Source: Candidatus Magasanikiibacteriota bacterium
GTDB taxonomy: Bacteria > Patescibacteriota > Patescibacteriia > Magasanikbacterales > 2-02-FULL-50-9b
DNA: 64,000 nucleotides
Assembly (NCBI GenBank): GCA_903893485.1
Contig: CAITMK010000014.1
Location: 2,144 to 66,143 of the forward strand
Reading direction: 5' to 3'
Shown: piece by piece, positions 12,789 through 43,249 of the stretch
Numbering within the stretch: position 1 is the first letter of the stretch
Layout of the letters: each line of letters opens with the position of its first letter
The notes under the pieces: generated by a model
What the model saw: the letters and a program-made list of their open reading frames with translations, nothing else
Told to the model about the DNA's origin: nothing
Database searches by the model: none
Translations under genes and position numbers: made by a program

Positions 12789-13664
12789 ATGGATACCGAA
12801 TCACTGCGCGCGCTCGTACACGCGCATGAGCAACCACGACGCCAAGCGCTTTCTTCCAAACTGCCACATCTCAAACGTGGAATTATTTTGGCACGGCGCA
12901 CGCATCGGTCCATTACAAATTATTTAAATCCTGCGATTCAAAATAAAAAATCAAAAACTTTTTTTACTCATGTGATTGCGCGTCACCAAAGTGTGTTGGT
13001 GCGTAAACTTGGCAACAGCGATGTAAAATTGCAGGAAGAAAAAATTATCAATTTACGTCGTGCCTGCGAAGATTTAAACGGCATCATCATTGAACCAGGC
13101 AAAATTTTTTCGCTGTGGCATTTGATTGGCCAACCAACACATGCCAAAGGGTACGTAACTGGCATGCTGCTTTCGAATGGGAAAGTCGTGCCGGGCATCG
13201 GCGGTGGTCTGTGCCAACTTTCAAATTTTTTGTGCTGGATTTTTATGCACGCCGACACCAAAATTATTGAGCGTTACCACCATTCCATGGATGTGTTCCC
13301 TGATTCTGGCCGCGTGTTGCCATTTGGCAGTGGCGCAACGTGCCTTTATAATTTTATTGATTTAAAAATCAAAAACACGGGTGCTGAGCCACTGCAATTA
13401 AAAATTTGTGTCACCGATACGCATCTTAAAGGCCAGCTCGTTTCACCAAAATCAGCTGACGCTAAATTCTCAGTGTTTGAAGCCGAGCACTGCTTTGTAA
13501 AAACTACAAAAAAATATTTTCGATACAACGAAATTTTTCGCGCAAAAAAAATTAATGGTCAAGAAATTTCGCAGGAAAAATTATTTACTAATTTTGCGCC
13601 TGTTTTGTATCCAGTCACATCAGAATATTTAACCGAAAATAATTTTACTGTGGTCGAACTATAA
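12789..13664 (+). CDS. VanW-like protein
   Basis: VanW family signature GIGGGLCQLSNFL; only plus-strand gene in this neighbourhood. Confidence 0.8.
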   Translation: MDTESLRALVHAHEQPRRQALSSKLPHLKRGIILARRTHRSITNYLNPAIQNKKSKTFFTHVIARHQSVLVRKLGNSDVKLQEEKIINLRRACEDLNGIIIEPGKIFSLWHLIGQPTHAKGYVTGMLLSNGKVVPGIGGGLCQLSNFLCWIFMHADTKIIERYHHSMDVFPDSGRVLPFGSGATCLYNFIDLKIKNTGAEPLQLKICVTDTHLKGQLVSPKSADAKFSVFEAEHCFVKTTKKYFRYNEIFRAKKINGQEISQEKLFTNFAPVLYPVTSEYLTENNFTVVEL

Positions 13665-13703
13665 AAAATGCCTCAGCCCGCTCTGTTTCCAAAGGGGCCG
13701 AGG
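13663..13703 (-). terminator. Intrinsic terminator of GC-rich island A gene
   Basis: On the minus strand CCTCGGCCC-loop-GGGCTGAGG (9-bp stem with one G.U) followed by CATTTTTTAT. Confidence 0.7.
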
Positions 13704-13718
13704 ACTTGGTTTGCAGCA

Positions 13719-14708
13719 TTACTTGGGCGTGCCCGGCGTCGACACGATCACCTCATCACTTTCCAGAAAAGTCGATCCGAACAAAACACGTTCCAGCTGA
13801 ATTTGCGGCGGCATGCCATGCTCAGACCTCTTCAAGCGGATAAACATCCGCTCATTCTGGCCTTCGCTCTCGACGTAAGACATCGCAGTGTACGCCTTCC
13901 GCTCAGACCCGCGCCCAAAGCCGCTCAAGTTGAACGAACAACGATGCCACTCTTCCTGAAACCAGTAACCGGTTGGATTGTAGCAAAACATGATGCACAT
14001 GAACACCACTTGCGCTGGCGTTGCCGCGCGGTCCGATGAAACCGTATTCCCCACGCTCGGCTCGTATGCAATCCAGCGCCATTCAACTTCTTGTGGAGGC
14101 TGATAGAGAGACAGCACGCCAAAGCCCTCACGATCTGTTGTCCGTGGTGGAAAACAAATCTCTGGCCACGAACCACTACCTCTCGGAAACCACTCCAGCA
14201 GATTCGCCAGCGTCAAGTCCGGATGCATGGGATAAAGCAGTGCTGCCGGCGTTGCACCTTGCGTGTGCGTCTCAACCGCTTTCGGCAAGTCCTCTTGCAG
14301 TTTCTCGATCTGCGCAGCCGTGAAACGCACGTGTCCACGCATGGCCCGCTCAACTTCAACAGGGTGCACGATCCTGCGCGCCATGGGAGGCTTGCGATCA
14401 ATCACAAAGCTTTCCGCAATGGGATTTGTACCCATGAAGCGCGCCAACATGTCATCGATTTCGACGCAGGTGATTTGCCCATTACTCAGCGCCAGCAACA
14501 ATCGATTGATCCAGATACCCGCGCCAAGAAATTCACAAAGCGCTTCAGGATCGAACACGCCCTCTCGTGCAACTTCAAGGGCGCGTTTGGCCAGCCGCCA
14601 TTGAAAGTTCTCGCGCTGTGCGTGTTTGCCATGGCCGTGCCACCGGTCCTGCCAATAGGCGGCGTCAAACATTTGTTGAAGCGTCGGAAGTGAACGAATA
14701 ACACTCAT
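13719..14708 (-). CDS. GC-rich island A hypothetical protein (329 aa from ATG, 340 aa from the upstream GTG)
   Basis: About 60% GC ORF with SD GAGG 7 nt before ATG at 14708, its own terminator, and no recognisable domain; aromatic/Trp-rich. Confidence 0.5.
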   Translation of the reverse strand: MSVIRSLPTLQQMFDAAYWQDRWHGHGKHAQRENFQWRLAKRALEVAREGVFDPEALCEFLGAGIWINRLLLALSNGQITCVEIDDMLARFMGTNPIAESFVIDRKPPMARRIVHPVEVERAMRGHVRFTAAQIEKLQEDLPKAVETHTQGATPAALLYPMHPDLTLANLLEWFPRGSGSWPEICFPPRTTDREGFGVLSLYQPPQEVEWRWIAYEPSVGNTVSSDRAATPAQVVFMCIMFCYNPTGYWFQEEWHRCSFNLSGFGRGSERKAYTAMSYVESEGQNERMFIRLKRSEHGMPPQIQLERVLFGSTFLESDEVIVSTPGTPK

Positions 14709-14851
14709 TGTCAACCTCACGTTGCTCACCACGAATTTCACGAGGACAAGGCAGCTCTTTGCTGCCGATGCCAGTTCGTAATTCCTTGCAGCAAGCTAAA
14801 GGCATCCACCGCGGATGCTGCGCAAAACCTTACGCGCAATTTTTAAAAATG

Positions 14852-16795
14852 TCAATTTGCCCCGGCCGCGGCCTGCGCTGCCCGATACCCTGCCCACCAC
14901 GTATAAAATTGTTTTGCCGCTGGCACCGCAGCCGTTGCACCTTCAACACCTTCTTCAATTAAAAATACGGTTACGATTTCTGGTTTTTCGTATGGCGCAT
15001 ACGAAACAAACCATGCGTGCGGCTGTTTGGTAGTTGACCACTGCGCGGTACCGGTTTTACCCGCAACCGTGACACCAACATTTTGCAAACTACGGGCGGA
15101 GCCAGCCAAAATCGTCTGACGCATACCTTCGCGCACCACCTGCAGCCACTGCGAATCCACCGGAACTTTCGCGCGCATCGCCGGCGCCACAACATACGTG
15201 GATCCATCTGGCAATAATCGCGATTCCACCAATTGTGGTTTCCAAAGTGTGCCGTCATTGGCAATGGCAGAAATTCCCATTGCCATTTGCAGTGGCGTCA
15301 CCAAAATATCACCTTCACCAATCGACATATTATACGTATCGCCCGGATACCAGGCCTCACCCTTGGTTTCTTTTTTCCATGCTGGCGATTGCACAAAACC
15401 ACGTGCCTCGCCCGGCATATCAACGCCCGTATCGGAGCCAAAACCAAAATATTCCAAATATTGTTTCATGCGATCCGGACCCAAACCATCATTGCCCGTG
15501 CGTCCACCACCTAACAAATAGAAAAATGTATTCACGGATTCCGCAATCGCTTTGCGTACATCGGTTACGCCATGTCCGCCCGCTTTCCAATCCGGAAAAT
15601 AATGATTCCCCAACTGAATACCACCAACAGAATTTACCGTTGTCGTTGGCGTAATCACCCCTTCTTGCAAACCAGCTGCCGCATAAAATGGCTTGATAAT
15701 CGAACCCGATGGAAATTGTCCACCAATCACACGATTCAAAAGTGGCTGATCCGGCCCAGTAGTAAGAGCCGTGTAAGCTGCAGGCGAAATCGTATTAGAA
15801 AATAAATTTGGATCAAAACCCGGCAGTGAAACCATGCCTAAAATTTGTCCGTTACGCGGATCAACTGCAATCGCGCTACCACGCGTGCGATTTGAAACTT
15901 TTAAGCCCAACTGCAGCGCCGATTCCAACTGCTGTTGAATTTGCAAATCAATGCTAAGCACCAAGCCATCGCCCGGCACCGGATCAGTCACCGAAACCGT
16001 ACGCTGCTCCGCGCCGCGTGCGTTAAATTCCGCATCGCGCGCACCGGGCACGCCGCGTAAATAAGTTTCCATGGAATCTTCCAAACCCGTTTTACCAATC
16101 AAATCAGTTGGATAATATTCCTCATCCACATGTGATTCCAATTCATCCGCAGAAATACGCCCCATGTAACCCAAAACATGCGCCATACTTTCAGGCAAAG
16201 GCGTTTGGCTGCCTGGCACGCCCGCAACATATAAACGTTTTGCCGAACGTTCAATCGTTAGCCCTGGAAACGCCGCGCTTTTTAAATAAACTTGCACGGC
16301 TTCATCGTATGTAATCGGATCTTTTACCACGACACTTGCGTAGGAATATTTTTGAAATGCATCAAGCATGGCATTAATTTTATCTTCACCAACGCCAACC
16401 GTTGCGCCAATCTGACGAATCACGGCTTCGCGATCCGTAGCATTACGTGGTAAATCCTGTGCGCGCAACGTGAGTCGAAAGTTTGGCACATTCGTTACGA
16501 GCGGTACCATATTGCGGTCAAATAAAATGCCGCGCTCTGGAATAATCGGCTGCGTGTGCAATCGATTATGATCCGACAAAACTCGCCACGCGTTACCCTG
16601 CACGAGTTGTAATTGCACCACGCGTGCAGTAAGCGCACACAAAACCAATGCTGCAAAAAGTCCAAAAACTTTAATGCGCGTACCACCAACAGCGGCTCCT
16701 AAAAATCCAGAATTTTCATCTGTTGCAACAGGCGCCGCATCTTCCACCCATTGATTTCGCCGCTGGATAAAAACTCCACTTTGAAACCATTTCAT
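14852..16795 (-). CDS. mrdA: Penicillin-binding protein 2 (MrdA), elongasome transpeptidase
   Basis: PBP2 dimerisation plus transpeptidase domains (SxxK, KTGTAQ); start MKWFQS at 16795 gives a 4-nt overlap with mreD. Confidence 0.9.
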   Translation of the reverse strand: MKWFQSGVFIQRRNQWVEDAAPVATDENSGFLGAAVGGTRIKVFGLFAALVLCALTARVVQLQLVQGNAWRVLSDHNRLHTQPIIPERGILFDRNMVPLVTNVPNFRLTLRAQDLPRNATDREAVIRQIGATVGVGEDKINAMLDAFQKYSYASVVVKDPITYDEAVQVYLKSAAFPGLTIERSAKRLYVAGVPGSQTPLPESMAHVLGYMGRISADELESHVDEEYYPTDLIGKTGLEDSMETYLRGVPGARDAEFNARGAEQRTVSVTDPVPGDGLVLSIDLQIQQQLESALQLGLKVSNRTRGSAIAVDPRNGQILGMVSLPGFDPNLFSNTISPAAYTALTTGPDQPLLNRVIGGQFPSGSIIKPFYAAAGLQEGVITPTTTVNSVGGIQLGNHYFPDWKAGGHGVTDVRKAIAESVNTFFYLLGGGRTGNDGLGPDRMKQYLEYFGFGSDTGVDMPGEARGFVQSPAWKKETKGEAWYPGDTYNMSIGEGDILVTPLQMAMGISAIANDGTLWKPQLVESRLLPDGSTYVVAPAMRAKVPVDSQWLQVVREGMRQTILAGSARSLQNVGVTVAGKTGTAQWSTTKQPHAWFVSYAPYEKPEIVTVFLIEEGVEGATAAVPAAKQFYTWWAGYRAAQAAAGAN

Positions 16796-19179: not shown

Positions 19180-19560
19180 TTAGCGTCGCGATTCAAGCGT
19201 AACATATTGTTGTTCCAAAAGACCAATGGCTGCAATAAGAAGCAGCACCACCCACCACCGTAAAAAATTGTAGTGGAGTAGCATGAGCGAAATGACGAAG
19301 AGCACGGACAAAAGCGTTGCCTGTCGAAACGTACGGCGCACATACATGACGATTAATTCATCACGCTTTTGAATGTACACCCGAATGACAAACCCAATGA
19401 CCGCAAAAAAACCAAGCAGCGCCAAAAGTAAACTGAGATAAAAAAGCGCAATAATAGGATATCCCGCGGCCGGTGTGGTGGTGGTAAGCAAAACGCCCCA
19501 CGCGCCCCACGCAAGAATGTCGGTAAAAAGAACAAGTGCCAGAAAACCCTTTAGGGACAT
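19180..19560 (-). CDS. Hypothetical polytopic membrane protein
   Basis: 126 aa with 3-4 predicted TM helices. Confidence 0.45.
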   Translation of the reverse strand: MSLKGFLALVLFTDILAWGAWGVLLTTTTPAAGYPIIALFYLSLLLALLGFFAVIGFVIRVYIQKRDELIVMYVRRTFRQATLLSVLFVISLMLLHYNFLRWWVVLLLIAAIGLLEQQYVTLESRR

Positions 19561-19572
19561 ATGGCGGAATTA

Positions 19573-19896
19573 TTAAAGCAAATAACGAATGCGTTCAATG
19601 GATGGATCTTCACAAGCGACTCGTACACCTTCGAGCAAGTGCTTTTCATTTTTTTTCACTTCCTGAGCAACTGGCGCAGCACTCACCGAGACGGTTAACG
19701 TATGGTTTTTTAAGTACAGCACACGCACTAATTGCGGGGTTGCACCAAAAAAATCATCGAACACTTTTTGAGATGCTTCAACAACAACAGCTGCTTGTAC
19801 GCCAGCTGTTACGCCTGCATGCGCCGCACGCCCTTTGAGGATATCGCGAAGGTCGTCCATATGGAGTATTGTGTCAAAAATTGGGCAGCGTGGCAA
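19573..19896 (-). CDS. DUF721/DciA-like small protein
   Basis: 107 aa; C-terminal pattern LVRVLYLKNHTLTVSVSAAPVAQEVKKNEKHLLEGVRVACEDPSIERIRYLL resembles DUF721. Confidence 0.4.
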   Translation of the reverse strand: MPRCPIFDTILHMDDLRDILKGRAAHAGVTAGVQAAVVVEASQKVFDDFFGATPQLVRVLYLKNHTLTVSVSAAPVAQEVKKNEKHLLEGVRVACEDPSIERIRYLL

Positions 19897-19920
19897 GTCA
19901 TTTTGCAGGATGTCAAGTGT

Positions 19921-19949
19921 TTGACCATGATAAAAATACGTGATATAAA
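19921..19949 (+). promoter_or_regulatory. Sigma70-type promoter of island B1 gene with overlapping TGTCAA/TTGACC palindrome
   Basis: TTGACC-17 nt-TATAAA; inverted half-sites GTCAAgtgtTTGAC overlap the -35; SD AAGGAG 7 nt before ATG at 20004. Confidence 0.55.
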
Positions 19950-20003
19950 AGGCAAAGGTCTAAAATAGATCTTCCAGGACGAATAACCCCAAGGAGAAAT
20001 TCC

Positions 20004-20234
20004 ATGCTCTCGACTCGAATCGGTTTTTTACTGGCTCAACGGTTTGCCTATGCCACTTGTGGCGTTCTCTGCGTGGCATTTGGCACGATCAGCGCCGGGA
20101 TTGGCGGTATCGCAGCTGTGAGCGTAATTCCGGAAATGATCAGGGATCGCAACCCGAGCCACTGCCTCGGCGCCTTTCAAGTCAGCCGCGATTTCTTCGT
20201 TCTTGGCGCGCAGATCACTTTTTCGCGAGAGTGA
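20004..20234 (+). CDS. GC-rich island B1 small hydrophobic protein (76 aa)
   Basis: Strong SD plus promoter plus own terminator; N-terminal half hydrophobic (IGFLLAQRFAYATCGVLCVAFGTISAGIGGIAAVSVI). Confidence 0.5.
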   Translation: MLSTRIGFLLAQRFAYATCGVLCVAFGTISAGIGGIAAVSVIPEMIRDRNPSHCLGAFQVSRDFFVLGAQITFSRE

Positions 20235-20262
20235 TGATTACCGCCACACACAAAGGCGACCC

Positions 20263-20304
20263 GACCACTTTGTTTCGCACACGCGGACAAGGTGGTCATT
20301 TTTT
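20263..20304 (+). terminator. Intrinsic terminator of B1
   Basis: GACCACTTTG-loop-CAAGGTGGTC followed by ATTTTTT. Confidence 0.65.
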
Positions 20305-20346
20305 ATAAAAAAAGCGCCAGCGCCCGCGAGGTGTGCGGGGCTGGCG
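20305..20346 (-). terminator. Intrinsic terminator of B2 (copy 1 of 40-bp module)
   Basis: Minus strand CGCCAGCCCCGCACACCTCGCGGGCGCTGGCGC + TTTTTTT; near-identical copy at 20985-21023. Confidence 0.75.
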
Positions 20347-20376
20347 TTGCGACAAGTCGCTGGCGGCTGCCAGGGC

Positions 20377-20739
20377 TTATTCGCTGTAGAGGCACGAGAT
20401 GAAGAGCGATTTTGTAATGCCACCGCGAGCGGCTTGTACCTGACACGACTCGCCGACCTTCAGGCGATTCCAATCTTCTCGCGTAACTGAGAGATTAGCT
20501 TCACCTTCATCAATACGAAGCCTCAGCGTAAAGCGATCTTGCGAAACGCGAACCGAGTAGCGACTGCTCGGCTGAATTGCTCCGGGAGCCTGCGTTTTGC
20601 TCACCACCACGGCTTTGCACCGACCCAGATTCTTGCCGAACAAGACCTGGTCGATACAAGAAAATACCATGAAGATGAGCACGCCAGCGAACGTGATCAG
20701 GATCGCCAAGAGTATGAAATTACTAAGAAAATTCAACAT
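20377..20739 (-). CDS. GC-rich island B2: single-pass membrane protein with about 90-aa beta-rich ectodomain (DUF3592-like?)
   Basis: Start MLNFLSNF with SD GGAGTGG; TM helix FILLAILITFAGVLIFMVF, then RYSVRVSQDRFTLRLRID ... SVTREDWNRLKVGESCQV. Confidence 0.5.
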   Translation of the reverse strand: MLNFLSNFILLAILITFAGVLIFMVFSCIDQVLFGKNLGRCKAVVVSKTQAPGAIQPSSRYSVRVSQDRFTLRLRIDEGEANLSVTREDWNRLKVGESCQVQAARGGITKSLFISCLYSE

Positions 20740-20984
20740 TGTCCACTCCAAATCGTACAGCTTAGCCCATGATTGTGTAATAGCTGCAAATTGCACAACA
20801 AAACAGCATAGCATAAATATGCCGTTTTGTCAATGCTTTTAGTGTTACAGACTCAATAATCGCCGTGCTTTTTCATAACCATCTTCATCATTTTCCAGAT
20901 CGCGCAAAACCTCTGTCACGTTTGAAAATTGGGCTTGTAGTTTTTTTAAAAAACGCATGTCGCCTATGGATTTAGGATCTTAAT

Positions 20985-21023
20985 AAAAAAGCGCCAGCGC
21001 CCGCGAGTTGTGCGGGGCTGGCG
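20985..21023 (-). terminator. Intrinsic terminator of B3 (copy 2 of 40-bp module)
   Basis: AAAAAAGCGCCAGCGCCCGCGAGTTGTGCGGGGCTGGCG; differs from copy 1 by a single G/T. Confidence 0.75.
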
Positions 21024-21045
21024 AGAAACAAACGATGCGTGGCGA

Positions 21046-21630
21046 TTAGCCAGGCAGACCGCCAATGCGGAAAGTTGGCGGACTCAGATCTACAATGCGC
21101 GGCGTGGCCGGCGGCGAGCAGCCAAAGTAGTCCAGGATTTTTGCAGCCATTTCTTCAGGACGGCCATAGCCACGGGCAACTGGCAACAAAAACGTCGCAA
21201 GTTCAATCTCGAAGTCCGCGCGCGTCTCGGCGGTGCAAAGCTCATCGAGCGTGGCGTTGCCGTGCTCCCGATAAAGCGCCTCGGCGTCGATGATCGGCAC
21301 CAGACGATAAAACGGCGCCGGCGCGTCATCCGTCGAAAAGGCATCGAGTGCCTTGCGATAAAAGCCACGACGCATCTCCTGCATCCGAACGCCCATCATC
21401 GCCGAATAGTTCAGGTCTCCCTGCATCTCGGCCATGAACGTCAACTGCGCCAGCGCTTCGACGCAGCATGCATACACGTTCGGGTCCGTCGCGACTTTCA
21501 AGAAAGACATGTGCCGAAGCACTTCTTGATATTTGTCGCTCGCCTCACTGCTATACACATCCAGCTGGCTGAGACAAAGCGCAACACGCTCCTGCAGCGT
21601 AGGCTTCACATACTCTGGAATCTTCGGCAT
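21046..21630 (-). CDS. GC-rich island B3 hypothetical all-alpha protein (194 aa)
   Basis: SD AGGGAG 8 nt before ATG; TTGACA -35 upstream; no recognisable domain. Confidence 0.5.
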   Translation of the reverse strand: MPKIPEYVKPTLQERVALCLSQLDVYSSEASDKYQEVLRHMSFLKVATDPNVYACCVEALAQLTFMAEMQGDLNYSAMMGVRMQEMRRGFYRKALDAFSTDDAPAPFYRLVPIIDAEALYREHGNATLDELCTAETRADFEIELATFLLPVARGYGRPEEMAAKILDYFGCSPPATPRIVDLSPPTFRIGGLPG

Positions 21631-21701
21631 GACAATTACTCCCTACTCTTGGTTGATAGAGCAAAAAAAGAGTAACACAAAAAGTGTTAAATGTCAACCC
21701 C

Positions 21702-21808
21702 AGACTTTGATTTTATTTTTCAAAAAGACTGAACCCCATAAAGCGAGCTGCAACGCAAAGCGTTGCAATAGCGAGCGTGTCTTTTTCGAAAAATAAAATC
21801 AAAGTTCT
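21702..21808. repeat. Nested inverted repeat (28-bp AT-rich arms around a central GC hairpin) at the helicase 3' end
   Basis: Arms AGACTTTGATTTTATTTTTCAAAAAGAC / GTCTTTTTCGAAAAATAAAATCAAAGTTCT; centre GCTGCAACGCaaaGCGTTGCAA; right arm overlaps the helicase stop codon. Confidence 0.6.
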
Positions 21809-24660: not shown

Positions 24661-24689
24661 AGGTATGAATTGTATCACATGCAGCATAA

Positions 24690-25500
24690 AAAAAAGTAGG
24701 GCTCGGCAGCGGCATACGATGCGAAACGAGTTCGCAGGTACACCGCTACCGAGCCGGGAAACTATTCACCGAACAACTTTCGCAGTCGGACACCCAGTTC
24801 GGGCACTAACAGATTTTCTCACGACTAGCAATCGCGATACTCATCTGAATTTCTACAGCCGCGGGCGCATCTTACGATCGCCCATTTTTCCCGCTCCCCA
24901 TTTCAGAGAAACGAGCCTTTAACCTAACTGTCGCTTGAAACAGCAGGTCTCAGTTGTCACAATGCCATCAATCGGCCGCGACTTGCGAATTCACCACCTT
25001 ACCAAATTCCATCGCCATGGAGTTTTGATATCGGACAAAATCAGTCCGACGTGCTGCACATGATAGCGCAGCCGAAGCATCTTTCAGAAGAACCCCAATG
25101 AACACTATCGCCGTTGGGCCAGCTCTGGACCCTTTGCGACGCCGGCTGTCTTTCAACAACCGACTTGCATACTCACCCTTAGAGGTCGCCACCACATCCT
25201 GGTAAAGCCATCCTTACGGTGGCTAACCGACCAAGCGAGATTCTCTACAGGGGAAGAACTCCAGCAATCCACTATGCCAATGGACGCTTTTACTGCCCTA
25301 TACGAGCGACAGCCGAGCAATTATTATACCAAAAAAATAGCAAAAATGGTTAGAGCCATTAATCGATCCGCGCTTTGCGAGATCAACACCCCCTTCGTCT
25401 GGGATTAGGTCGCCATGCCTAGAGGGCCGTTGACAACTTAGAACCAGGATAGCCTATAAAAAGCTATTTGTCAAGACCCGCTTGGCAAAAAAGCTAAAAT
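24690..25500. other. ORF-poor, GC-elevated, highly structured region of about 0.8 kb (candidate large ncRNA or decayed cassette)
   Basis: No ORF above 90 aa with RBS; 13-bp stem GGCTCGGCAGCGG ... CCGCTACCGAGCC at about 24702-24757; many further local stems. Confidence 0.3.
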
Positions 25501-25543
25501 AAAATAAAAAAGACCCGCGACGTGAGTTCTCACAATCGCGGGG
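25501..25543 (-). terminator. Intrinsic terminator of island C gene
   Basis: Minus strand CCCGCGA-loop-TCGCGGG followed by TCTTTTTTATTTT. Confidence 0.7.
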
Positions 25544-25572
25544 GCTCATTGAGCCTGGTTTGCTGGACGCGG

Positions 25573-26091
25573 CTACACCTCGGATGCGCCCGCAGAATTC
25601 GTAGCGAAGATAACGCGTGCGAACACAGAGGCTGGAAGCACTTTCGCTTTCAAGCGCTGCCACGTGGTCGGTTTGCCGTACTGATACAGCTTGAGCGACG
25701 GAAAATCCCGGAGATTCCACAGCGCCGCGCGTGCCGCACCTACATGCGTGACGTCCGTCCAGACCTTGATGACGGTATCCCGTGAGATTTCGCTCGCAAG
25801 CAGGTATTGATGGAACACCACCGTGCTCTGCTGCACCGAATCGCCACCGTAAAGCGTGACGAACGTGGGAGTTTGCTGATTTCCGTGAGGATCTCGCAGT
25901 GCCCACTCCTGCCTCAAATAGTCCAAAATGGCCGTGTGATTGCCTTCGCCACAGAGCGCAACAACCGTTCGGGCGTTGTGCTGCTTGGCAAGAGCGATCG
26001 CGTCGTCTAAGTAATGCTGATGATCAAATGTCTCCGGATTCACGTCGCGACACAAAATCGCAAGGCAGACTGGATGTTTGTTGAATTGCAT
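25573..26091 (-). CDS. GC-rich island C hypothetical protein (172 aa; weak DUF218/YdcF-like resemblance)
   Basis: SD AGGAGG 6 nt before ATG; TTGACA-17-TATTTT promoter with TGn extension; LCGEGNH ... TLYGGDS pattern. Confidence 0.5.
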   Translation of the reverse strand: MQFNKHPVCLAILCRDVNPETFDHQHYLDDAIALAKQHNARTVVALCGEGNHTAILDYLRQEWALRDPHGNQQTPTFVTLYGGDSVQQSTVVFHQYLLASEISRDTVIKVWTDVTHVGAARAALWNLRDFPSLKLYQYGKPTTWQRLKAKVLPASVFARVIFATNSAGASEV

Positions 26092-26119
26092 GGGTTCCTC
26101 CTGTTGGTCCTGCCTTTAC

Positions 26120-26148
26120 AAAATACCAGCTAAGTCGGTTTCTGTCAA
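26120..26148 (-). promoter_or_regulatory. Sigma70-type promoter of island C gene
   Basis: Minus strand TTGACA-N17-(TGg)TATTTT. Confidence 0.55.
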
Positions 26149-26165
26149 GGATTCGGCCCCAAATA

Positions 26166-26220: not shown

Positions 26221-28064
<1,844 letters not shown>

Positions 28065-28154
28065 TTTCGTGGTATGGTTGATGGGAGTCGAACGTCATTT
28101 TTCGCTTAAACACTTCGTTTTTAGCTGAAACTGGCCCGATCCCTGGAGGGTGTC

Positions 28155-28796
28155 ATGTTGCGTCGAATCGCTTCGTTTCTGGTTCTCTTTGTGCTCTGCT
28201 TCACAACGACGCCGGCATTTGCTTGGGGTCGCGGTGGTGGTGGAGGTGGTGGTCATGGCGGCGGCGGTTACCGCGGAGGTGGTGGCGGCTGGACCGGTGG
28301 CTATCGCGGCGGTGGCGGAGGTGGTTACTACAACGGCGGTTACCGCAGCGGTGGCAGCTGGGGTGGCTACAGCACCTGGGGCACTAGCCCTCGGTACGTA
28401 AACGCTTGGAACTACCCGAACCGGATCGTCTATCCCGCGCCCGTGCCGATGTGCACGTACCGCGACAGCTGGGGACGAATCTATCAGGCGATCTGCGTGG
28501 CACGTCCGGCCGTGGTGTATGCGCCGCCCGTGCAGCAATACGTGCAGCCCGCGCCGATCCCGCAGCAATACCTGGCGGATCAGCCGCCGGTATACGGACA
28601 GCCGCAGCAGCAAGTAGCTGCCCCGGCTCCGCCCGCAGCTGTTCAAGGCACGCACACCTTCGGCTGCTACCAGGCGCGCGACAACAACTTCTGGTACTGC
28701 GACGCAGACCAGCAGAAGTTCGCCAGCTGCACGCCGGCGGATACCACAGGCAACTTCGTTTGCCAGCAGCAAGTGATCGAATACGTCCGGCCATAA
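28155..28796 (+). CDS. GC-rich island D: secreted Gly/Tyr/Arg-rich, Pro/Gln-rich, Cys-rich protein (213 aa)
   Basis: Signal peptide MLRRIASFLVLFVLCFTTTPAFA; GGGGYRGGGGG repeats; PQQ/PAP linker; 6-Cys C-terminal domain; about 62% GC; opposite strand to the atp operon. Confidence 0.6.
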   Translation: MLRRIASFLVLFVLCFTTTPAFAWGRGGGGGGGHGGGGYRGGGGGWTGGYRGGGGGGYYNGGYRSGGSWGGYSTWGTSPRYVNAWNYPNRIVYPAPVPMCTYRDSWGRIYQAICVARPAVVYAPPVQQYVQPAPIPQQYLADQPPVYGQPQQQVAAPAPPAAVQGTHTFGCYQARDNNFWYCDADQQKFASCTPADTTGNFVCQQQVIEYVRP

Positions 28797-28822
28797 TGCC
28801 GCGCCGTTCGATCGCCAACCCA

Positions 28823-28864
28823 GGCTCCGACCACACAAGCGTGTGGCTCCGGAGTCCTTTTTTA
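28823..28864 (+). terminator. Intrinsic terminator of island D gene
   Basis: GC hairpin (CCACAC-AAGC-GTGTGG core) followed by TTTTTTATTTAT. Confidence 0.6.
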
Positions 28865-35086: not shown

Positions 35087-36603
35087 TTAAGTTAATTGTG
35101 GGAATAATGGATCCGCCGCGAGTAACACTCCACCTGGCTGCAGCAAACCCCATTCCATAATTTTTTCGAACTGAGGTTCGTAGGATTCAAAACCAAGTTG
35201 CGCCAATATTTTTTCTGATGACGCGGGCATGAATGGCGAAATCGCAAATGCAATCTGTCGCAAACCTTCGATCAAAGTGTAGAGTGTACGATCAACATCC
35301 GCGGTGCGCCCTTCTTTGGCAGCGGTCCATGGTTTTTCTTTGTCGATGAGTTGATTTAAACTGCGCACAAAATCCCACACCACTTCGAGCGCGAGTTGGA
35401 ATTCCCATTTTTCCATGTGCTCGGCATAACGGCTCCAAAAAATTTCGTGCGTTGCTTCGGTAATCGCTGGCACCACGCCTTCACAAAATTTAATATCCAT
35501 GGCAATCGTGCGCATGACTAAATTTCCTAAATCGTTTTGCAAATCGGCGCGATAGCGTTGTTCCAATTTGGTGAAAGAAAAATCACCATCGCCACCAAAC
35601 GGCATTTCGCGAAACAAGAAAAAGCGAAACGGATCCAAACCGTATTTAGAAATAATGTCGAGCGGATTTACCACATTGCCCAAAGACTTTGACATTTTTT
35701 GACCATCCACCGTAAGCCATCCGTGCGCTACAATTTTGCCCGGAAGCGGCAACTGCGCGGACATCAGCATTGCGGGCCAGAGCAGCGCGTGGAACCGATT
35801 GATTTCCTTAGCCATCACATGCGCATTTGCTGGCCACCACTCTGTAAAAAAATCATCTTGCGCTTCATCGCCATACCCAACTGCGGTTACATAATTAGTA
35901 AGCGCGTCAAACCACACGTACATTACTTGCGAGTCATCGCCCGGCACGGGAATGCCCCATGATAATTTTTCAACGCTGCGCGAAATTGAAATGTCTTCTA
36001 AACCTTCGTCCAAAAGATGACGCATTTCTTTTTGGCGATTTTGTGGAAACACAAAATCCATGTGCTCATCAAAATGTTTTTTTAGCGCGTCAGAATATTT
36101 TGAGAGACGGAAAAAATAATTTTCTTCTGCAAGTAATTCTGGTTTTTTTAAATGAATCGGGCAACGGCCTTCGGTGTCCAAATCTTTTTCGTTGTAAAAT
36201 TGTTCGCAGCCAACGCAATACAAACCTTCGTAAGTTTTTTTGTAAATATCGCCTGCTGCCGCGGCAGCCTCCCAAAATTTTTGAGCGCCCGCAATATGGC
36301 GCGGTTCGGTGGTACGAATAAAATCCGTGTTTGAACACCCCAGCGTTGTATGTAAATCACGAAACGTTTGTGCAATGCCATCAACAAACTGTTGTGGCGT
36401 CACGCCCGCTGCATCTGCGGCGCGCGCAATTTTTTGGCCGTGCTCGTCGGTACCGGTTAAAAAATTAACTTCTTTGCCCTGCAAGCGCTGAAACCGAGCC
36501 ATAATATCTGCCGCAATAGAAGTATACGCATGGCCAATATGAGCCGATGCGTTCACATAATAAATTGGCGTCGTGAGGTAATAATGGTCGGATCGCTTTG
36601 ACA
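35087..36603 (-). CDS. metG: Methionyl-tRNA synthetase
   Basis: TTPIYYVNASAHIGHAY (HIGH), KMSKS present; real start MSKRSD about 36603 (track ORF extends upstream through GC-rich DNA). Confidence 0.95.
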
Positions 36604-36641
36604 TATGGGACCAGCTTATCAAAAAATACGCGGCCGCGCAA

Positions 36642-36679
36642 TAAAAAAATCTGTGCAAGGTCCCGAAGGTCCTTGCACA
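36642..36679 (-). terminator. Intrinsic terminator of island E gene
   Basis: Perfect palindrome CTGTGCAAGGTCCCGAAGGTCCTTGCACAG followed on the minus strand by ATTTTTTTATT. Confidence 0.8.
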
Positions 36680-36705
36680 GAGTCGCTGCGACGCACGCCG
36701 AAGTT

Positions 36706-37299
36706 CTAGGCGTGCAGCACAAGCGTGGTGCCAGCCGACAGCAGATGGCCGGGCGTGCCGAATGGAGTGCGTTCCACCATAATGCCAGACCCCTTGGGCT
36801 TTGCTTCGTACACCCAACGCTCGCCTTCAGCGCTGACAAACGCCGCCAGTGGCAAATTGTTGCGCCGACGGCGACTGCAGTACCCCAAGTAGGCCAAGAA
36901 GGTCGCCTCCGTAATGGACGCGGACAGGTATGGGCCAAGCGCGTCATCTTTGCAGAGAAACGTCGGCTCCACCTGATAGCGCAGACTTGCGACGCACACC
37001 GCACCGCCCGGAAATCCACCCGTCGGAATCGATTCATCGACCCGCTCCGGATTGATTCCCCGAACCAGCATGTCGTACTCCAAAAAGTACCCGCAGGACA
37101 AATCTCGGTGCGTGAGCCAAACGCGCGCGAGAAGAATGTCCACTTCCTTCAACGCACGATTAACCTTGCCGAATGCGCCGTCTTCAGGCGCGCCCACCAC
37201 GAGGCGAGCGATGTCGGTTACGGTACGCACAATTTCGCAATAGACACCGGCGACTTGCCGCAACCCCGTTTGGGGATGAAAATTCAAAGTCTGATGCAT
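36706..37299 (-). CDS. GC-rich island E hypothetical protein (197 aa)
   Basis: SD GAGGGGG 7 nt before ATG; canonical promoter and operator upstream; no recognisable domain. Confidence 0.5.
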   Translation of the reverse strand: MHQTLNFHPQTGLRQVAGVYCEIVRTVTDIARLVVGAPEDGAFGKVNRALKEVDILLARVWLTHRDLSCGYFLEYDMLVRGINPERVDESIPTGGFPGGAVCVASLRYQVEPTFLCKDDALGPYLSASITEATFLAYLGYCSRRRRNNLPLAAFVSAEGERWVYEAKPKGSGIMVERTPFGTPGHLLSAGTTLVLHA

Positions 37300-37310
37300 G
37301 GAAACCCCCT

Positions 37311-37363
37311 CGTACTGTTCAGTACGTAAAAAAGATTGTAGTTACAAAATATAAAAAAGTCAA
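37311..37363 (-). promoter_or_regulatory. Promoter TTGACT-17-TACAAT with perfect palindromic operator CGTACTG-NN-CAGTACG at the predicted TSS of the island E gene
   Basis: Minus-strand -35 at about 37363-37358, -10 at about 37340-37335, palindrome 37311-37326 immediately upstream of the SD. Confidence 0.55.
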
Positions 37364-38723: not shown

Positions 38724-38748
38724 AAAATCTACCCATTATGGGTAGATT
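38724..38748 (-). terminator. Hairpin terminator after ferredoxin gene
   Basis: AAATCTACCC-ATTAT-GGGTAGATTT perfect 10-bp stem then T-run on the minus strand; overlaps the stop codon. Confidence 0.55.
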
Positions 38749-38972
38749 TGATTTCCCTCTTCGTCGATAAGGGTGATCGCAAGCGTTGGACAGCTTTGCG
38801 CACCAAGCAAAATCGTGTCGTAATCGTCAGTCCATGGTTCAATAACCACTGCTTTGTTTTCATCGTCCATATAAAAGGTACGGCCCGCAACAGCCACACA
38901 CGATGCGGCACCAATGCAAGCTTCACGATCAACAATTACTTTTGCAATTTTCTTTTTTGGTGTTTCTTCCAT
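38736..38972 (-). CDS. Small mono-cluster ferredoxin (Fer4_13-like)
   Basis: 78 aa, DREACIGAASCVAVAG ... CPTLAI cysteine pattern. Confidence 0.6.
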   Translation of the reverse strand: MEETPKKKIAKVIVDREACIGAASCVAVAGRTFYMDDENKAVVIEPWTDDYDTILLGAQSCPTLAITLIDEEGNQIYP

Positions 38973-38992
38973 ATAACTTCATTATATCACAA

Positions 38993-39679: not shown

Positions 39680-39688
39680 ATAATTATT

Positions 39689-40981
39689 TTATTTTTTCAT
39701 CCAGTGAGGCACACCGTCTTCGACGAATGCACTGTGCGCTGCAATATTTTCTTGTTTTTGATCCATTGAGAGATTGAGCGGCGAAATTGACCGCAGAAGT
39801 GCGACAACCGGTGGAAGCACTTCGAGCACGTGATCAATATCTTCGCGCGTAGTAGACGCGCCGAGTGTCATACGAAGCGATCCATGCGCATATTCATATG
39901 GCTTGCCCATCGCCAAAATCACGTGTGATGGATCGAGCGATGTTGAAGTGCATGCCGAACCGGTTGAAAGCGAAATTCCAAATTCATCCATGTAAAGTAG
40001 CGCGGCTTCGCCTTCGATATCTAAAATCGTAAAATTCAAATTATTTGGCAAACGATTCGTCGGATGGCCATTCAAAATTACTTTTGGTACACGCACTTGA
40101 ATTTCGGCCCACAAATAATTGCGAAGTTCAGCAAGACGCGCATTTTCGGTTTCACGTTTTTCTGTTGCAATTTCCAACGCGCGTGCAAGCCCTACAATCG
40201 CAGGAACGTTTTCAGTACCCGAACGAAGTCGATTTTCCTGACCGCCACCAACGATAAGTGGTACAAGTTGTACGCCGCGGCGTACATACAAAATCCCAAC
40301 ACCTTTTGGCCCATAAATTTTAGAACCATTCAGTGTAAGCAAATCAACTTTTAATTCATCAACGTTTAGGTTGAGCGCGCCAGCTGCCTGACATGCATCG
40401 GTGTGCAAAAAAGGCGGATCAATTGGCTTGCGGCCATTGTCTTTTTTCCAACGCTGAATCGCCGCGCCAATTTCTGCAATTGGCTCAATAGTGCCAACTT
40501 CATTGTTGGCATACATAATTGAAATCAAAACAGTTTCCGGGCGAAGCGCTGCAATAATATTTTCAACCGAAACTTCGGCGTGTTCATTCACGGTTGTTTC
40601 AGTAATTTCAAAACCTTCTTTTTTTAAAACTTCAGTTGGAAGCAAAACTGCATGATGTTCGATTTGGCTAGTTATAATATGCTTTCCCCATTTTGCACCG
40701 TACTTGCGGGCAATGCCAAAGAGTGCCAAATTATCACTTTCCGTGCCGCCGCCGGTAAAAATAATTTCTTCTGGACGTGAATGTAAAATTTGAGCGATTG
40801 ATTCGCGCGCGCTTGAAAGCGCTTCACTTGCATCGCGAGAAATTTCGTACAAACCGCTTGGATTACCAAAGTGGTCCGTGAAGTATGGAAGCATCGCTGC
40901 AACAACGTCTGGATGCGTTGGAGTGGTCGCCGCATGATCTAAATATACAATTCGTTTTTCAATTTCAGAAAGTGATTTCAT
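39689..40981 (-). CDS. Cysteine desulfurase (NifS/IscS family)
   Basis: PLP-dependent class V aminotransferase, active-site SGSACTS. Confidence 0.9.
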   Translation of the reverse strand: MKSLSEIEKRIVYLDHAATTPTHPDVVAAMLPYFTDHFGNPSGLYEISRDASEALSSARESIAQILHSRPEEIIFTGGGTESDNLALFGIARKYGAKWGKHIITSQIEHHAVLLPTEVLKKEGFEITETTVNEHAEVSVENIIAALRPETVLISIMYANNEVGTIEPIAEIGAAIQRWKKDNGRKPIDPPFLHTDACQAAGALNLNVDELKVDLLTLNGSKIYGPKGVGILYVRRGVQLVPLIVGGGQENRLRSGTENVPAIVGLARALEIATEKRETENARLAELRNYLWAEIQVRVPKVILNGHPTNRLPNNLNFTILDIEGEAALLYMDEFGISLSTGSACTSTSLDPSHVILAMGKPYEYAHGSLRMTLGASTTREDIDHVLEVLPPVVALLRSISPLNLSMDQKQENIAAHSAFVEDGVPHWMKK

Positions 40982-41391
40982 ACTTTTTTGATAAGATCCG
41001 CGACAGTTATTGATTGTAAATATTTTTGAATATACGCATTGATGGTATGAAAATTAGTACGCGTCATGCACACCGATGCGTGAGGACAGCTCACGTCATT
41101 TACAGTAAGACAAGGCACCATGGCCATTTCACCTTCAAGTGCATCAGCGACTTTGAGCACCGTGATTTTGTCGGCAGGCAAAGCAAGTTTATAACCCCCG
41201 CTGCGTCCTTTGGATGCGGTCACCAAGTTTGCCGCACGAAGTTTACCTACAATGCGCTGCAAAAAAAGAAACGAAACGCGCCCACGCTTTGCAAATACTG
41301 ACAACGCCAAACTCTCCCCTTCTTGAAGTTTTGAAAGGGCTGCTAAAAATTGGAGTGCGTAATCGGTTTGTTTGTTGAGGGTTAAGGCCAT
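40978..41391 (-). CDS. Rrf2-family transcriptional regulator (IscR-like, 3-Cys)
   Basis: wHTH MALTLNKQTDYALQFL; CLTVNDVSCPHASVC cluster ligands. Confidence 0.85.
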   Translation of the reverse strand: MALTLNKQTDYALQFLAALSKLQEGESLALSVFAKRGRVSFLFLQRIVGKLRAANLVTASKGRSGGYKLALPADKITVLKVADALEGEMAMVPCLTVNDVSCPHASVCMTRTNFHTINAYIQKYLQSITVADLIKKV

Positions 41392-41519
41392 AAATACATA
41401 CCATTCAGGCATGTGAAATACATTACCAGAACTAATTCAGACTGTCAAGGTATGTTATTAATGCGGCTAAAACCAGATTTTCTTGCTTTATTAGCCTAAA
41501 CTTCGTATAGTAATCACAT

Positions 41520-41897
41520 ATGACACAAACAAAAAACCTGATTCGAAACATCTATTTATACCTCGTTAGTGCAATCTCACTTTTCATGATTGTATTTTCG
41601 CTTGTAAGTATGGTTAATTTAGCGCTTCGCACTTGGGTATTTCCGCAAGCTGACTATAATTATTACCAGACTGCACCAGTAGCCATTCCATGCACCCCAG
41701 ACCCAACAAATAAAATTACTTGTCCAACCGCCGAGCAGCAAGCAACTCAAAAAGCGCTTGATGATAAAAATGCCGAACAAAATCGCATTGCGCAGCGCGA
41801 CCGCGATTTAGTACAAGAAATTTCGTTTTTAATCATTGCCATACCACTTTTCTGGTATCATTGGTTATTAATTCGTCGCGACCGCGAAGAAGCCTAA
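41520..41897 (+). CDS. Hypothetical two-TM membrane protein
   Basis: TTGCTT-17-TATAGT promoter upstream; TM helices at both ends. Confidence 0.45.
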   Translation: MTQTKNLIRNIYLYLVSAISLFMIVFSLVSMVNLALRTWVFPQADYNYYQTAPVAIPCTPDPTNKITCPTAEQQATQKALDDKNAEQNRIAQRDRDLVQEISFLIIAIPLFWYHWLLIRRDREEA

Positions 41898-41949
41898 ATA
41901 AATTTACTCAAAAGTGCGTACGGGCGGTAGCCAATGCGCACTTTTGATT

Positions 41950-42516
41950 TTAGGCGTACGAGAGAATCGCCGGCGCCATAAAAGACCGTGTAACCGTTGC
42001 GTCTACAACACCAAGCGAGTAGGCCCCTGTGTCGCGCATGAAGCACGCCCGATACTGAAACGAATTTCCAATATACGTGCAGGAACACACAATTGGTTCG
42101 TCCCAAAATAAATGCGGAAATTGCGCGTACACAAACATGCCCTGACGAATGGTGATACCCTGATCAGGAAACTTACCGCTTTCAAATTGGACCGCAAACC
42201 AATACACGGAATTTTCGTGACTCGGCTCCAAATCAACAGCCAAATACTTTTGCGCACCAAGCGGAAACCAGATGGTCAGCTGACGGCACATATCACGAAA
42301 AAACATACGCTCATCGGCTAAAATGAGATGTGCTCCTGCGTGCTGCGCCGCAAAAAATAACTCCTTGGGAATCTCGGGAATCGAGAGAAGGTACTTTTGG
42401 AACGGCTGCCGCGCGCCAGGCCACCCACAATCATGCAACCGTTGCGCACGCTGCACGCGAAGTTCGTGACGATTTTGCACCGCGGTACCGAGAGAAAGTT
42501 TGGTTACCAATTCCAT
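41950..42516 (-). CDS. GC-rich island F hypothetical protein (188 aa)
   Basis: SD AGGAG 7 nt before ATG; TTGACA 60 nt upstream; aromatic-rich; no recognisable domain. Confidence 0.5.
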   Translation of the reverse strand: MELVTKLSLGTAVQNRHELRVQRAQRLHDCGWPGARQPFQKYLLSIPEIPKELFFAAQHAGAHLILADERMFFRDMCRQLTIWFPLGAQKYLAVDLEPSHENSVYWFAVQFESGKFPDQGITIRQGMFVYAQFPHLFWDEPIVCSCTYIGNSFQYRACFMRDTGAYSLGVVDATVTRSFMAPAILSYA

Positions 42517-42595
42517 GACGCACTCCTATGAACTGAAGGATAGTTCTATTAACCGGGTTCCACGCTTTCCAAAAACTGTCAAGTGTGATTAAATT

Positions 42596-43249
42596 GTGAG
42601 TATGTTACTCACACTTCTCGAAAAAAAGATCCTCACCGAGGATACCCGTAGCTTTACTTTTGCAGCAGAAGGCCCTTTTTTATTTGAACCAGGCCAATTT
42701 ACCATGCTCAGCCAAATAGGTGCAGCACCCAAAGATCGCCGGGCATTTTCCGTGGCAAGCGCGCCAAATGCCTCAACTTTAACTTTTTTAGTCACTTACA
42801 AACCAGAGGGTCATGTTTCAGGTTTTTTAGAAACCGCAAACATCGGCGCTCAAATTGAAGCTCAAAAACCAATTGGACGTTTTGTACTAAACCCTCAGGA
42901 CACGGCTCGAGTTTTTATTGCAACTGGCACAGGCCTTGCGCCAATGATTAGTTTTATTGAAAGCGACACGCCAAAAATTCCAACTACCATTTTATTTGGC
43001 GTTCGAAATGAATCACGTTTGTTTTGGACGGATAAGTTACCCGTGGATGCGCTCATCACGCTTTCGCAACCTTCAAATACTTGGAGCGGCCTAAAAGGAC
43101 GCGTCACAAATCATACAGCTGATTTAATTACAAAAAACGCAAATGCCGCTTGGTACATTTGTGGAAACCCTGAAATGGTAAAAGAGGTTCGCGCCGCACT
43201 ACTTACAGCTTCAATACCAACGGCAAATATTCACTTTGAGATTTACTAA
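42596..43249 (+). CDS. Ferredoxin-NADP reductase-like FAD/NAD(P)-binding oxidoreductase
   Basis: RAFSVAS (RxYS-type FAD motif) and GTGLAPM NAD(P) motif. Confidence 0.75.
   Translation: MSMLLTLLEKKILTEDTRSFTFAAEGPFLFEPGQFTMLSQIGAAPKDRRAFSVASAPNASTLTFLVTYKPEGHVSGFLETANIGAQIEAQKPIGRFVLNPQDTARVFIATGTGLAPMISFIESDTPKIPTTILFGVRNESRLFWTDKLPVDALITLSQPSNTWSGLKGRVTNHTADLITKNANAAWYICGNPEMVKEVRAALLTASIPTANIHFEIY

Follow-up and report, generated by a model that had tools for sequence, protein, structure and literature searches.

GC-rich genes with their own expression signals between the housekeeping operons of an uncultured Candidatus Magasanikbacteria genome

The chromosome of an uncultured, groundwater-type bacterium from Candidatus Magasanikbacteria (Patescibacteria, also called the candidate phyla radiation (CPR)) carries small GC-rich genes between its housekeeping operons. 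Are these genes recent arrivals from a GC-richer donor or long-standing residents? They are located in a 64-kb stretch of contig CAITMK010000014.1 (assembly GCA_903893485.1), the whole of which is referred to as the window. An earlier inspection of the sequence, performed without database searches and called here the sequence-only reading, described them as insulated expression units that were repeatedly acquired from a higher-GC donor or inserted by a single cassette mechanism. Here, eight island genes (I1-I4 and I6-I9) are compared with 54 core genes from the same window and with the corresponding loci of related genomes. The islands are probably resident and persistent accessory genes that are lineage-specific, evolve fast, resemble phage morons, and turn over in slots between operons.

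Organization and composition of the island units

The eight small orphan protein genes and one non-coding unit are monocistronic and positioned between housekeeping operons. The units share a common predicted plan, in which a TTGACA-type promoter is followed by a 5' leader containing a Shine-Dalgarno (SD) sequence, a GC-rich body, and a terminator composed of a hairpin and a run of T. The units, with their coding sequences (CDSs), putative signals, and, where given, GC content and GC content at third codon positions (GC3), are:

13662..14855, minus strand: I1 unit; CDS 13719-14708, 329 amino acids (aa); GC 0.55, GC3 0.61; -35 box TTGACA at 14855-14850, N17, TAAGGT; leader of about 118 nt; SD GTGAGG; terminator hairpin and T6
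19921..20304, plus strand: I2 unit, convergent with I3; CDS 20004-20234, 76 aa, hydrophobic; GC3 0.60; TTGACC-17-TATAAA; SD AAGGAGA; own terminator
20306..20833, minus strand: I3 unit; CDS 20377-20739, 120 aa, N-terminal transmembrane segment; TTGACA-17-TATGCT; leader of about 65 nt; SD TGGAGTGG; terminator
20984..21697, minus strand: I4 unit; CDS 21046-21630, 194 aa; TTGACA-17-TACTCT; SD GGGAG; terminator
24689..25474, minus strand: non-coding unit of about 750 nt; TTGACA-17-TATCCT; terminator with an 18-bp stem and T8
25505..26148, minus strand: I6 unit; CDS 25573-26091, 172 aa; TTGACA-17-TATTTT; 28-nt leader; SD AGGAGGA; terminator
28050..28863, plus strand: I7 unit, divergent from atpD; CDS 28155-28796, 213 aa, with signal peptide, Gly/Tyr/Arg repeats, and a tail containing Pro/Gln and Cys; TTGACA-17-TATGGT; 76-nt leader; SD CTGGAGGG; terminator
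36642..37363, minus strand: I8 unit; CDS 36706-37299, 197 aa; TTGACT-17-TACAAT beginning 3 nt past the rsmI stop codon; SD GAGGGGG; terminator about 40 nt ahead of the metG start
41907..42582, minus strand: I9 unit; CDS 41950-42516, 188 aa; GC 0.51, GC3 0.53, the weakest composition signal; -35 box TTGACA at 42582-42577; SD TAGGAGTG; bidirectional hairpin

The units are 0.4-1.2 kb long, dispersed in the window, and found on both strands. The slots they use are atpG-atpD, atpC-helicase, helicase-dciA, mrdA-PBP, rsmI-metG, and FNR-Rrf2, which are operon boundaries and a few breaks common to relatives. The sequence-only reading had treated positions 24690-26160 as a single island; this region contains the I6 protein gene, but the remainder is a separate non-coding transcription unit of about 780 nt.

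The mean GC content of the window is 0.461 with a standard deviation of 0.048 (300-bp windows). Sustained peaks with values of 0.57-0.66 are present only at the places flagged earlier (13.8-15.3, 20.0-20.7, 20.9-21.6, 25.5-26.1, 28.1-28.9, and 36.6-37.3 kb). The island CDSs have a GC content of 0.50-0.64 and a GC3 of 0.53-0.70 (lowest value 0.534), compared with a core-gene GC3 of 0.389 +/- 0.046 (maximum 0.50, n = 54), and the two groups do not overlap (Mann-Whitney p = 3e-6). The description of the islands as GC-rich is therefore correct, but the previously given 58-62% GC is an overestimate, and I3 and I9 reach only about 0.50-0.51. For I1-I8, the leave-one-out codon log-likelihood ratio lies between +0.13 and +0.20, and that of I9 is close to 0, versus -0.175 +/- 0.048 (maximum -0.047) for the host genes. 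Seven of the eight island genes thus share one codon-usage signature that is foreign to the core, and the islands are set apart from the core by both sliding-window GC and codon usage, the two comparisons that the sequence-only reading had proposed. The encoded proteins contain 2.6% Cys versus 0.7% in the core, more Arg, Pro, and Trp, and less Lys and Ile.

The second property that separates the two classes is the SD sequence. It is located 5-8 nt ahead of the ATG in all eight island genes, whereas the 54 core genes essentially lack it, as had been noticed from the sequence alone. The duplex energies of the island SDs with the canonical anti-SD ACCUCCUUA range from -6.0 to -11.6 kcal/mol (the 3' end of the host's own 16S rRNA is encoded outside the window), and the average for host genes at their first start is -1.1 kcal/mol (p = 1.4e-5). 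Four host ORFs (open reading frames) reach -6 kcal/mol or lower. Three of them (atpC, atpA, and glycosyltransferase) are TTG starts of long ORFs at variance with the stored gene tables, and the fourth is 8654-9583, with a putative start.

The motif TTGACW-N17-TANNNT occurs nine times in the window, compared with 0.88 expected occurrences, and none of 100 shuffled sequences attained nine. Seven of the sites lead island units (I1, I3, I4, the non-coding unit, I6, I7, and I8). The remaining two precede genes with host composition, vanW (12745) and the Rrf2-iscS-nifU operon (41448), which shows that this type of promoter belongs to the host and was not imported. The near-consensus promoter that the sequence-only reading ascribed to every island gene is present in these seven units, but I2 has TTGACC-17-TATAAA and I9 has TTGACA without a clear -10 box. 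Its claim about terminators was accurate for all hairpins and for most T-runs: hairpins with energies of -22 to -35 kcal/mol follow all eight island genes, and T6-T7 comes next in seven of them.

The distances between promoters and start codons differ between the two classes. The -10 box precedes the ATG by 15 nt in vanW (12745-12789) and by 7 nt in the Rrf2 operon (41448-41410), both without an SD, and their leaders would therefore be short or absent. In the island units the distance is 28-118 nt, and every leader contains an SD. Downstream host genes abut or overlap each other. This arrangement suggests that mRNAs of the core operons are leaderless or near-leaderless and that translation initiation of core genes may be leaderless or coupled. 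Because vanW and DUF5671 stand alone, have host composition, and lack an SD, the SD follows the GC-rich class and not just the stand-alone status of a gene.

Persistence and turnover in related genomes

The nearest match of the AddA-like helicase encoded at positions 21799-24687 has 69% amino-acid identity and belongs to a Candidatus Magasanikiibacteriota metagenome-assembled genome; other Patescibacteria reach at most 40%. MetG homologues with 73-81% identity are labelled Candidatus Magasanikbacteria by their sources. The syntenic relatives used for comparison are the loci L007 (JAHFHU01), L088 and L099 (both GCA_026396555.1; MetG 81%), L100 (MetG 77%), and L097, which was the one extra locus found by a DciA-anchored metagenome scan; L008-L010 are more distant. 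L009 (CAYFME010000007.1) is labelled 'uncultured Gammaproteobacteria bacterium', and its gene order and proteins (atp operon, helicase, mreBCD-mrdA) match those of Patescibacteria loci. The Gammaproteobacteria label is probably wrong.

Three of the island genes have counterparts in the same slots of relatives. The helicase-dciA slot of L088 contains a homologue of I4 (P0007, 163 aa) that aligns end to end with 30% identity and an E-value of 6e-9 against the whole library. Its GC3 is 0.63, compared with about 0.38 in host genes, and its signals comprise a TTGACT promoter, the SD GGAGG, and a terminator similar to the one of I4. Homologues of I9 occupy the FNR-Rrf2 slot in L087 (65% identity), L100 (29%, E-value 4e-13, GC3 0.68), and L099 (23%, E-value 3e-5). 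The GC3 of the I9 family is 0.13-0.25 above that of host genes in the three species, of four, that have host genes to compare. The promoter block aatttaatcacacTTGAC... is conserved in the window, L099, and L100, and an SD precedes the corrected start. The comparison of I9 with its L087 homologue gives non-synonymous (dN) and synonymous (dS) divergences of 0.26 and 1.81 (dN/dS 0.14), demonstrating that I9 is a real gene under purifying selection. The Rrf2 gene of L100 (5935-6351), which adjoins this slot, has a GC content of 0.59 and a GC3 of 0.68 versus about 0.43 in adjoining genes, whereas the GC3 of Rrf2 in the window is host-like (0.41); this core gene of L100 may have been swapped for a GC-rich allele.

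In four species (window, L007, L099, and L100), the atpG-atpD slot is occupied by a divergent gene with cTTGACA-17-TATRGT, an SD, and a signal peptide, which in three species includes a lipobox. The GC content of these genes is 0.57-0.65. The mature regions of the proteins are rich in Tyr, Pro, Gln, and Gly, and cannot be aligned (E = 0.11 only). I7 and its slot-mates are predicted to be secreted proteins or lipoproteins. Thus the slot, the high GC content, and the SD of I4, I9, and I7 are kept in relatives, and the promoter sequence is kept for I7 and I9.

The divergence of these genomes is high. Core genes of the window and L088 differ with a dS of 1.4-2.2 and have a four-fold-site identity of 0.30-0.42, which corresponds to saturation. 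Nevertheless, the GC content at shared four-fold sites (GC4) is 0.81/0.76 for the I4 pair and 0.67/0.76 for the I9 pair, compared with 0.4-0.5 for core genes. Position, promoter, and terminator indicate that each of the I4 and I9 pairs goes back to one ancestor already resident in the slot. If so, passive amelioration would be expected to have erased most of the compositional gap. The survival of GC4 and SD past saturation suggests that both are maintained traits and not fading marks of a recent transfer. The GC richness of I4 and I9 reflects either selection or a gene-specific bias, or else repeated re-acquisition of related genes at the same sites, for which no support was found. Base composition also shifts strongly inside the clade: the four-fold-site GC of core genes (atpD, atpG, and helicase) is 0.67-0.72 in L007 and 0.37-0.53 in the window.

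Other slots differ in occupancy among species. I2 and I3 are missing in L088, the closest relative examined, in which the terminator of the I4 homologue directly abuts the conserved dciA promoter. I8 is missing between rsmI and metG in L099 and L100, where the slot contains a gene for a peptide of 51 or 65 aa (L099 7919-8074, L100 9738-9935) with a Gly/His-rich N-terminus and a single transmembrane segment, and without an SD. The TatD-atpI slot is empty in the window, but it holds an SD-led 165-aa gene with GC3 of 0.58 in L099, and an SD-led gene for a 400-aa Sigma70_r4 protein with GC3 of 0.56 in L100. Similar units are present in more distant loci: directly after atpC in L009 there is TTGACA-17-TAGTAT followed by AGGAGG, an ORF with 70% GC, and a terminator, and in L010 SD-led genes with high GC3 are positioned beside the helicase. 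In a pooled screen of 15 related loci, 6% of ORFs were SD-positive and had a GC3 excess of +0.09 versus +0.004 (p = 8e-5). The screen is crude in that its greedy choice of ORFs takes antisense ORFs in GC-rich islets, and it recovered three SD-positive ORFs in the window; the association of SD with GC3 is supportive but not decisive.

These comparisons bear on the possibility that the units are repeated recent imports, not yet ameliorated, that came from a pool of SD-using donors with higher GC and were inserted by illegitimate recombination wherever an intergenic site tolerated them. Such an origin would account for the single distinct codon usage of seven units and for the use of SDs foreign to the core, and it agrees with the lack of I2, I3, and I8 in the closest relative examined and with the presence of different genes in the same slots of different species. 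Furthermore, the sole detectable relatives of I1 are in unrelated contexts, one of them a contig with 56% GC and partly SD-led genes. However, I4, I9, and the atpG-atpD gene are syntenic at saturated synonymous divergence with GC4 still at 0.67-0.81, the promoter type is that of the host, with conservation across species for I7 and I9, and no donor was detected in three viral-contig scans or when six of the proteins were searched against 1.84 billion representatives, which stand for about 15 billion proteins. We consider recent import of the set as a whole unlikely. The earlier proposal of acquisition from a higher-GC donor holds with respect to insulated units, foreign composition, codons, and SDs, and turnover of slots, but it does not fit I4, I9, and I7, which are old residents, and no donor is visible. 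The comparison with related genomes that had been proposed with it gave a divided answer: I2, I3, and I8 are missing in relatives, whereas the slots of I4, I9, and I7 are filled and their composition is still GC-rich.

The interpretation of the islands as resident accessory genes can be summarized in a model. Each unit would be autonomous, leadered, and monocistronic, with a host-type sigma-70-like promoter, an SD leader, a GC-rich ORF, and a strong intrinsic terminator, in contrast to core genes, which are located in tightly packed operons and would start translation without an SD, through short or absent leaders on the first genes and through abutting or overlapping ORFs downstream. Owing to its own promoter and terminator at an operon boundary, a unit would leave its neighbours undisturbed. 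Gain and loss of units take place over the time in which species diverge, and their ultimate origin was presumably horizontal. After settling, a unit could persist while its protein evolves fast and its GC-rich silent sites and SD are kept, as proposed for I4, I9, and the atpG-atpD gene.

Several points weigh against this model. I1, I2, I3, I6, and I8 lack a syntenic homologue, and it is possible that they were gained recently from an unsampled source. The helicase-dciA slot of L007 and L097 contains an unrelated gene with low GC, and the occupants are therefore not always GC-rich. The homology of the atpG-atpD genes would rest on position, promoter, and signal peptide, and the homologues of I4 and I9 might conceivably have been acquired independently, as related genes arriving at one hot spot. 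The force that would keep GC3 high is hypothetical. The functions of the promoters, SDs, and terminators are predicted from their sequences. About half of Parcubacteria 16S genes reportedly do not contain the CCTCCT anti-SD motif (PMC9297842), and the 16S gene of this organism is outside the window; the SDs are therefore putative translation signals. The preservation of the SD across species in leaders that are otherwise divergent argues that it is used.

Reality of the genes, protein families, and insertion

In an AT-richer genome, a GC-rich patch may represent an RNA gene or originate from chimeric assembly or contamination, and the islands might be spurious ORFs over structured RNAs. The non-coding unit indeed looks highly structured, and long antisense ORFs extend over I4, I7, and I8. 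However, different pipelines, applied independently to several samples, produced ENA and Logan contigs in which the island junctions recur at 99.8-100% identity, which places the islands in a real chromosome. The GC pattern of codon positions, the SD and ATG, and ORFs of up to 329 codons indicate coding sequences, as do the protein-level homologues and the dN/dS of I9. The coding units fold with z-scores between -3.7 and +0.2, most of them between -2.1 and +0.2. This range overlaps that of host genes (-2.6 to +1.0), and the interpretation of the coding islands as structured RNAs was rejected. An artefact is thus largely refuted for the eight coding units, and we regard it as extremely improbable. 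The antisense ORFs at 21010-21675, 28095-28838, and 36598-37329 equal or exceed the real gene in length. In L100, the stored gene call at 19262-19960 is the antisense strand of the atpG-atpD lipoprotein gene. Long antisense ORFs in GC-rich islets can lead gene callers and annotators to wrong-strand calls, as in this case.

The island proteins have no significant matches in Pfam, NCBIfam, PHROGs, or PADLOC, in line with the sequence-only reading, which had recognized no family among them. The HMMER search against the 1.84 billion representatives was performed with six proteins joined in a 1200-aa concatenation, with I2 and I7 outside the query. It returned only self-matches for I3, I6, and I8, the 65% homologue of I9 in L087, the 30% homologue of I4 in L088, and two remote matches of I1. 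Almost nothing was detected beyond close relatives, as is characteristic of orphan genes. I1 and I6 have no close homologue anywhere in the searches covering about 15 billion proteins, and I1 at close range matched only itself. Its remote homologues P0008 and P0009 share the core HP..ER..RG..RFT...LLFPGHPD, and their contexts (contigs L089 and L090) are unrelated; one of the contigs is the one with 56% GC, in which the adjoining genes are partly SD-led. Three profile scans of viral contigs revealed no relatives of the I1, I4, and I9 families. Matches to defence or toxin-antitoxin systems were absent from PADLOC, Pfam, and NCBIfam, and the units are single genes without a paired architecture.

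I2 and I3 contain hydrophobic segments, and I1, I4, I6, I8, and I9 look cytoplasmic judging from their sequences. The structure model of I1, calculated with the two remote homologues, has a predicted local distance difference test score (pLDDT) of 36 and is unusable. The AlphaFold2 model of I6, computed from a single sequence, is a generic alpha/beta fold of low confidence (pLDDT 50). The best PDB matches, CARF-like Rossmann domains (E-values of at least 0.03, TM-score about 0.4), are not significant and are not evidence that I6 contains one. A random or de novo origin was also considered and set aside: the amino-acid composition of the island proteins correlates better with the host proteome (r = 0.91) than with translated random sequence (r = 0.80), with a shift to Cys, Arg, and Trp, which is suggestive only.

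The way in which the units reached their positions was addressed at their boundaries. A 44-nt terminator sequence is present in two copies only in the window, with a spacing of 677 bp, and brackets the I3 segment:

20303..20346, strand not assigned: terminator copy B (I3), 93% identical to copy A
20980..21023, strand not assigned: terminator copy A (I4); the L088 homologue of I4 has a related terminator downstream

This single case may be a trace left when recombination took place at a terminator hairpin. A dedicated mechanism, either integron-like or targeted to terminator hairpins, could deliver modules composed of promoter, gene, and terminator, and the 93% identical repeat around I3 is the expected product if a circular module integrated at the I4 terminator by a single crossover. 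The closing of all units with a hairpin and T6-8 followed by AT would fit such a mechanism as well. However, only one duplication is present, and the other terminators and boundaries have no common sequence; a repeat search of positions 12-44 kb identified no shared boundary repeats or attC-like sites other than the I3/I4 terminator duplication. The Pfam annotation of neighbouring genes (about 10-46 kb) contains no integrase or recombinase domains. The units are dispersed in both orientations with their own promoters, unlike integron arrays, and three of them are old residents. A dedicated mechanism is hence quite improbable. The single cassette-insertion mechanism of the sequence-only reading and the shared direct repeats that it proposed to look for at island boundaries are not borne out. 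The islands also lack the hallmarks of genomic islands, as there is no tRNA in the 64 kb, no integrase, and the units are small. In relatives L007 (20274-20346) and L088 (7833-7905), a tRNA gene is located in the mrdA-PBP slot, where the window holds I1 and vanW.

The non-coding unit and relation to known systems

The longest ORF on the own strand of the non-coding unit 24689-25474 has at most 75 aa. The minimum free energy of the unit is -296 kcal/mol, compared with -257 kcal/mol in shuffled sequences (z -5.4), and without the terminator the z-score is -3.9 versus -2.1 to +0.2 for most island CDSs. The predicted fold has many GNRA-like loops. The unit had no match above the gathering score among the covariance models of Rfam 15, only chance-level matches at E <= 10, and no similar DNA was found in the fetched relative loci, phages, and plasmids. 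It is a candidate for a large structured non-coding RNA. Near its 5' end there is an AGGGGG motif followed by a 20-codon hydrophobic ORF that begins with TTG.

Phage morons, described by Hendrix, Juhala, and colleagues, are reportedly autonomous extra genes between conserved phage genes. The islands resemble them as single genes with their own promoter and intrinsic terminator, some of them positioned between genes that are adjacent in relatives, with a composition unlike the surrounding genome, mostly obscure functions, and insulated expression that spares the neighbours. The putative promoters and hairpins are consistent with autonomous transcription units. I8 and I2/I3 separate genes that are adjacent in relatives, which is not the case for I4, I9, and I7, the slots of which are occupied. 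Unlike morons, the islands are in a bacterial chromosome among housekeeping operons (atp, mre/mrd, metG, and Fe-S), have no PHROG matches or viral-contig relatives, and several of them are fixed in place across species with their composition maintained.

The islands also share properties with ORFans, or islet genes, of streamlined genomes, which are lineage-restricted, small, fast-evolving, without a family, and located in a few variable slots of a syntenic genome. ORFans are usually AT-richer than their genome. The island genes, in contrast, are GC-richer by 0.13-0.30 in GC3 and have a distinct initiation signal, and both properties are kept past synonymous saturation. Integron cassettes are likewise small single-gene modules of foreign composition and obscure function that accumulate in a genome, but the islands have no attC, integrase, or tandem array, and each has its own promoter and terminator.

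In Bacteroidota, which are SD-poor and sequester their anti-SD, the SD-led genes make up a translational class of their own. The window is similar in having a core without SDs and a small set of genes with strong conserved SDs, which implies two initiation regimes in one cell. However, it belongs to another phylum, and here the SD is tied to GC-rich, orphan, autonomously transcribed genes; anti-SD sequestration and bS21 are outside this comparison.

A tentative and rather speculative generalization is that genomes of Magasanikbacteria, and possibly of other Parcubacteria, have two compartments: an SD-independent, AT-leaning core, and autonomous, SD-dependent, GC-rich, fast-evolving genes, some of them encoding secreted proteins or lipoproteins, with composition and SD actively maintained. 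If so, the second compartment could be under separate translational control through the availability of the anti-SD, serving interactions with a host or the environment, and this compartment would also include the structured RNA of about 750 nt, as a large non-coding RNA of a new kind. Genomes of CPR/Patescibacteria are small and syntenic, with many genes to which no function is assigned, and the window suggests a recognizable organization for part of them. If the organization were general, it would provide a simple sequence signature for accessory genes, possibly involved in host interaction, in uncultured symbionts, a natural case for how one cell runs two translation-initiation regimes, and a counter-example to the notion that atypical composition means recent transfer.

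According to stored Pfam annotation of identical metagenome contigs, the gene order on the minus strand is PBP, vanW (plus strand), mrdA, mreD, mreC, mreB, a 126-aa gene, dciA, and the helicase, then atpC, atpD, atpG, atpA, atpH, atpF, atpE, atpB, and atpI, followed by tatD, cvpA, metG, rsmI, ferredoxin, nifU, iscS, and Rrf2. DUF5671 and the FNR-like gene (both on the plus strand) and the glycosyltransferase are at the end. The TGA stop codon of mrdA (PBP2) falls within the -35 box TTGACA of I1 (14850-14855), and a hairpin in the I1 leader (14818-14802) could be the terminator of the mrd operon. An AT-rich ORF of 37 codons (MRFLKKLQAQFSNVTEVLRDLENDEDGYEKARRLLSL; 20845-20958, minus strand), which L088 lacks, is located between the I4 terminator and the I3 promoter. 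A 23-nt inverted repeat (21704-21726 and 21783-21805; 96% complementary, 56-nt loop) extends across the stop codon of the helicase gene, a short distance upstream of the I4 promoter. The short metagenome contigs L002, L003, and L005 terminate at 21810-21814, adjoining the repeat.

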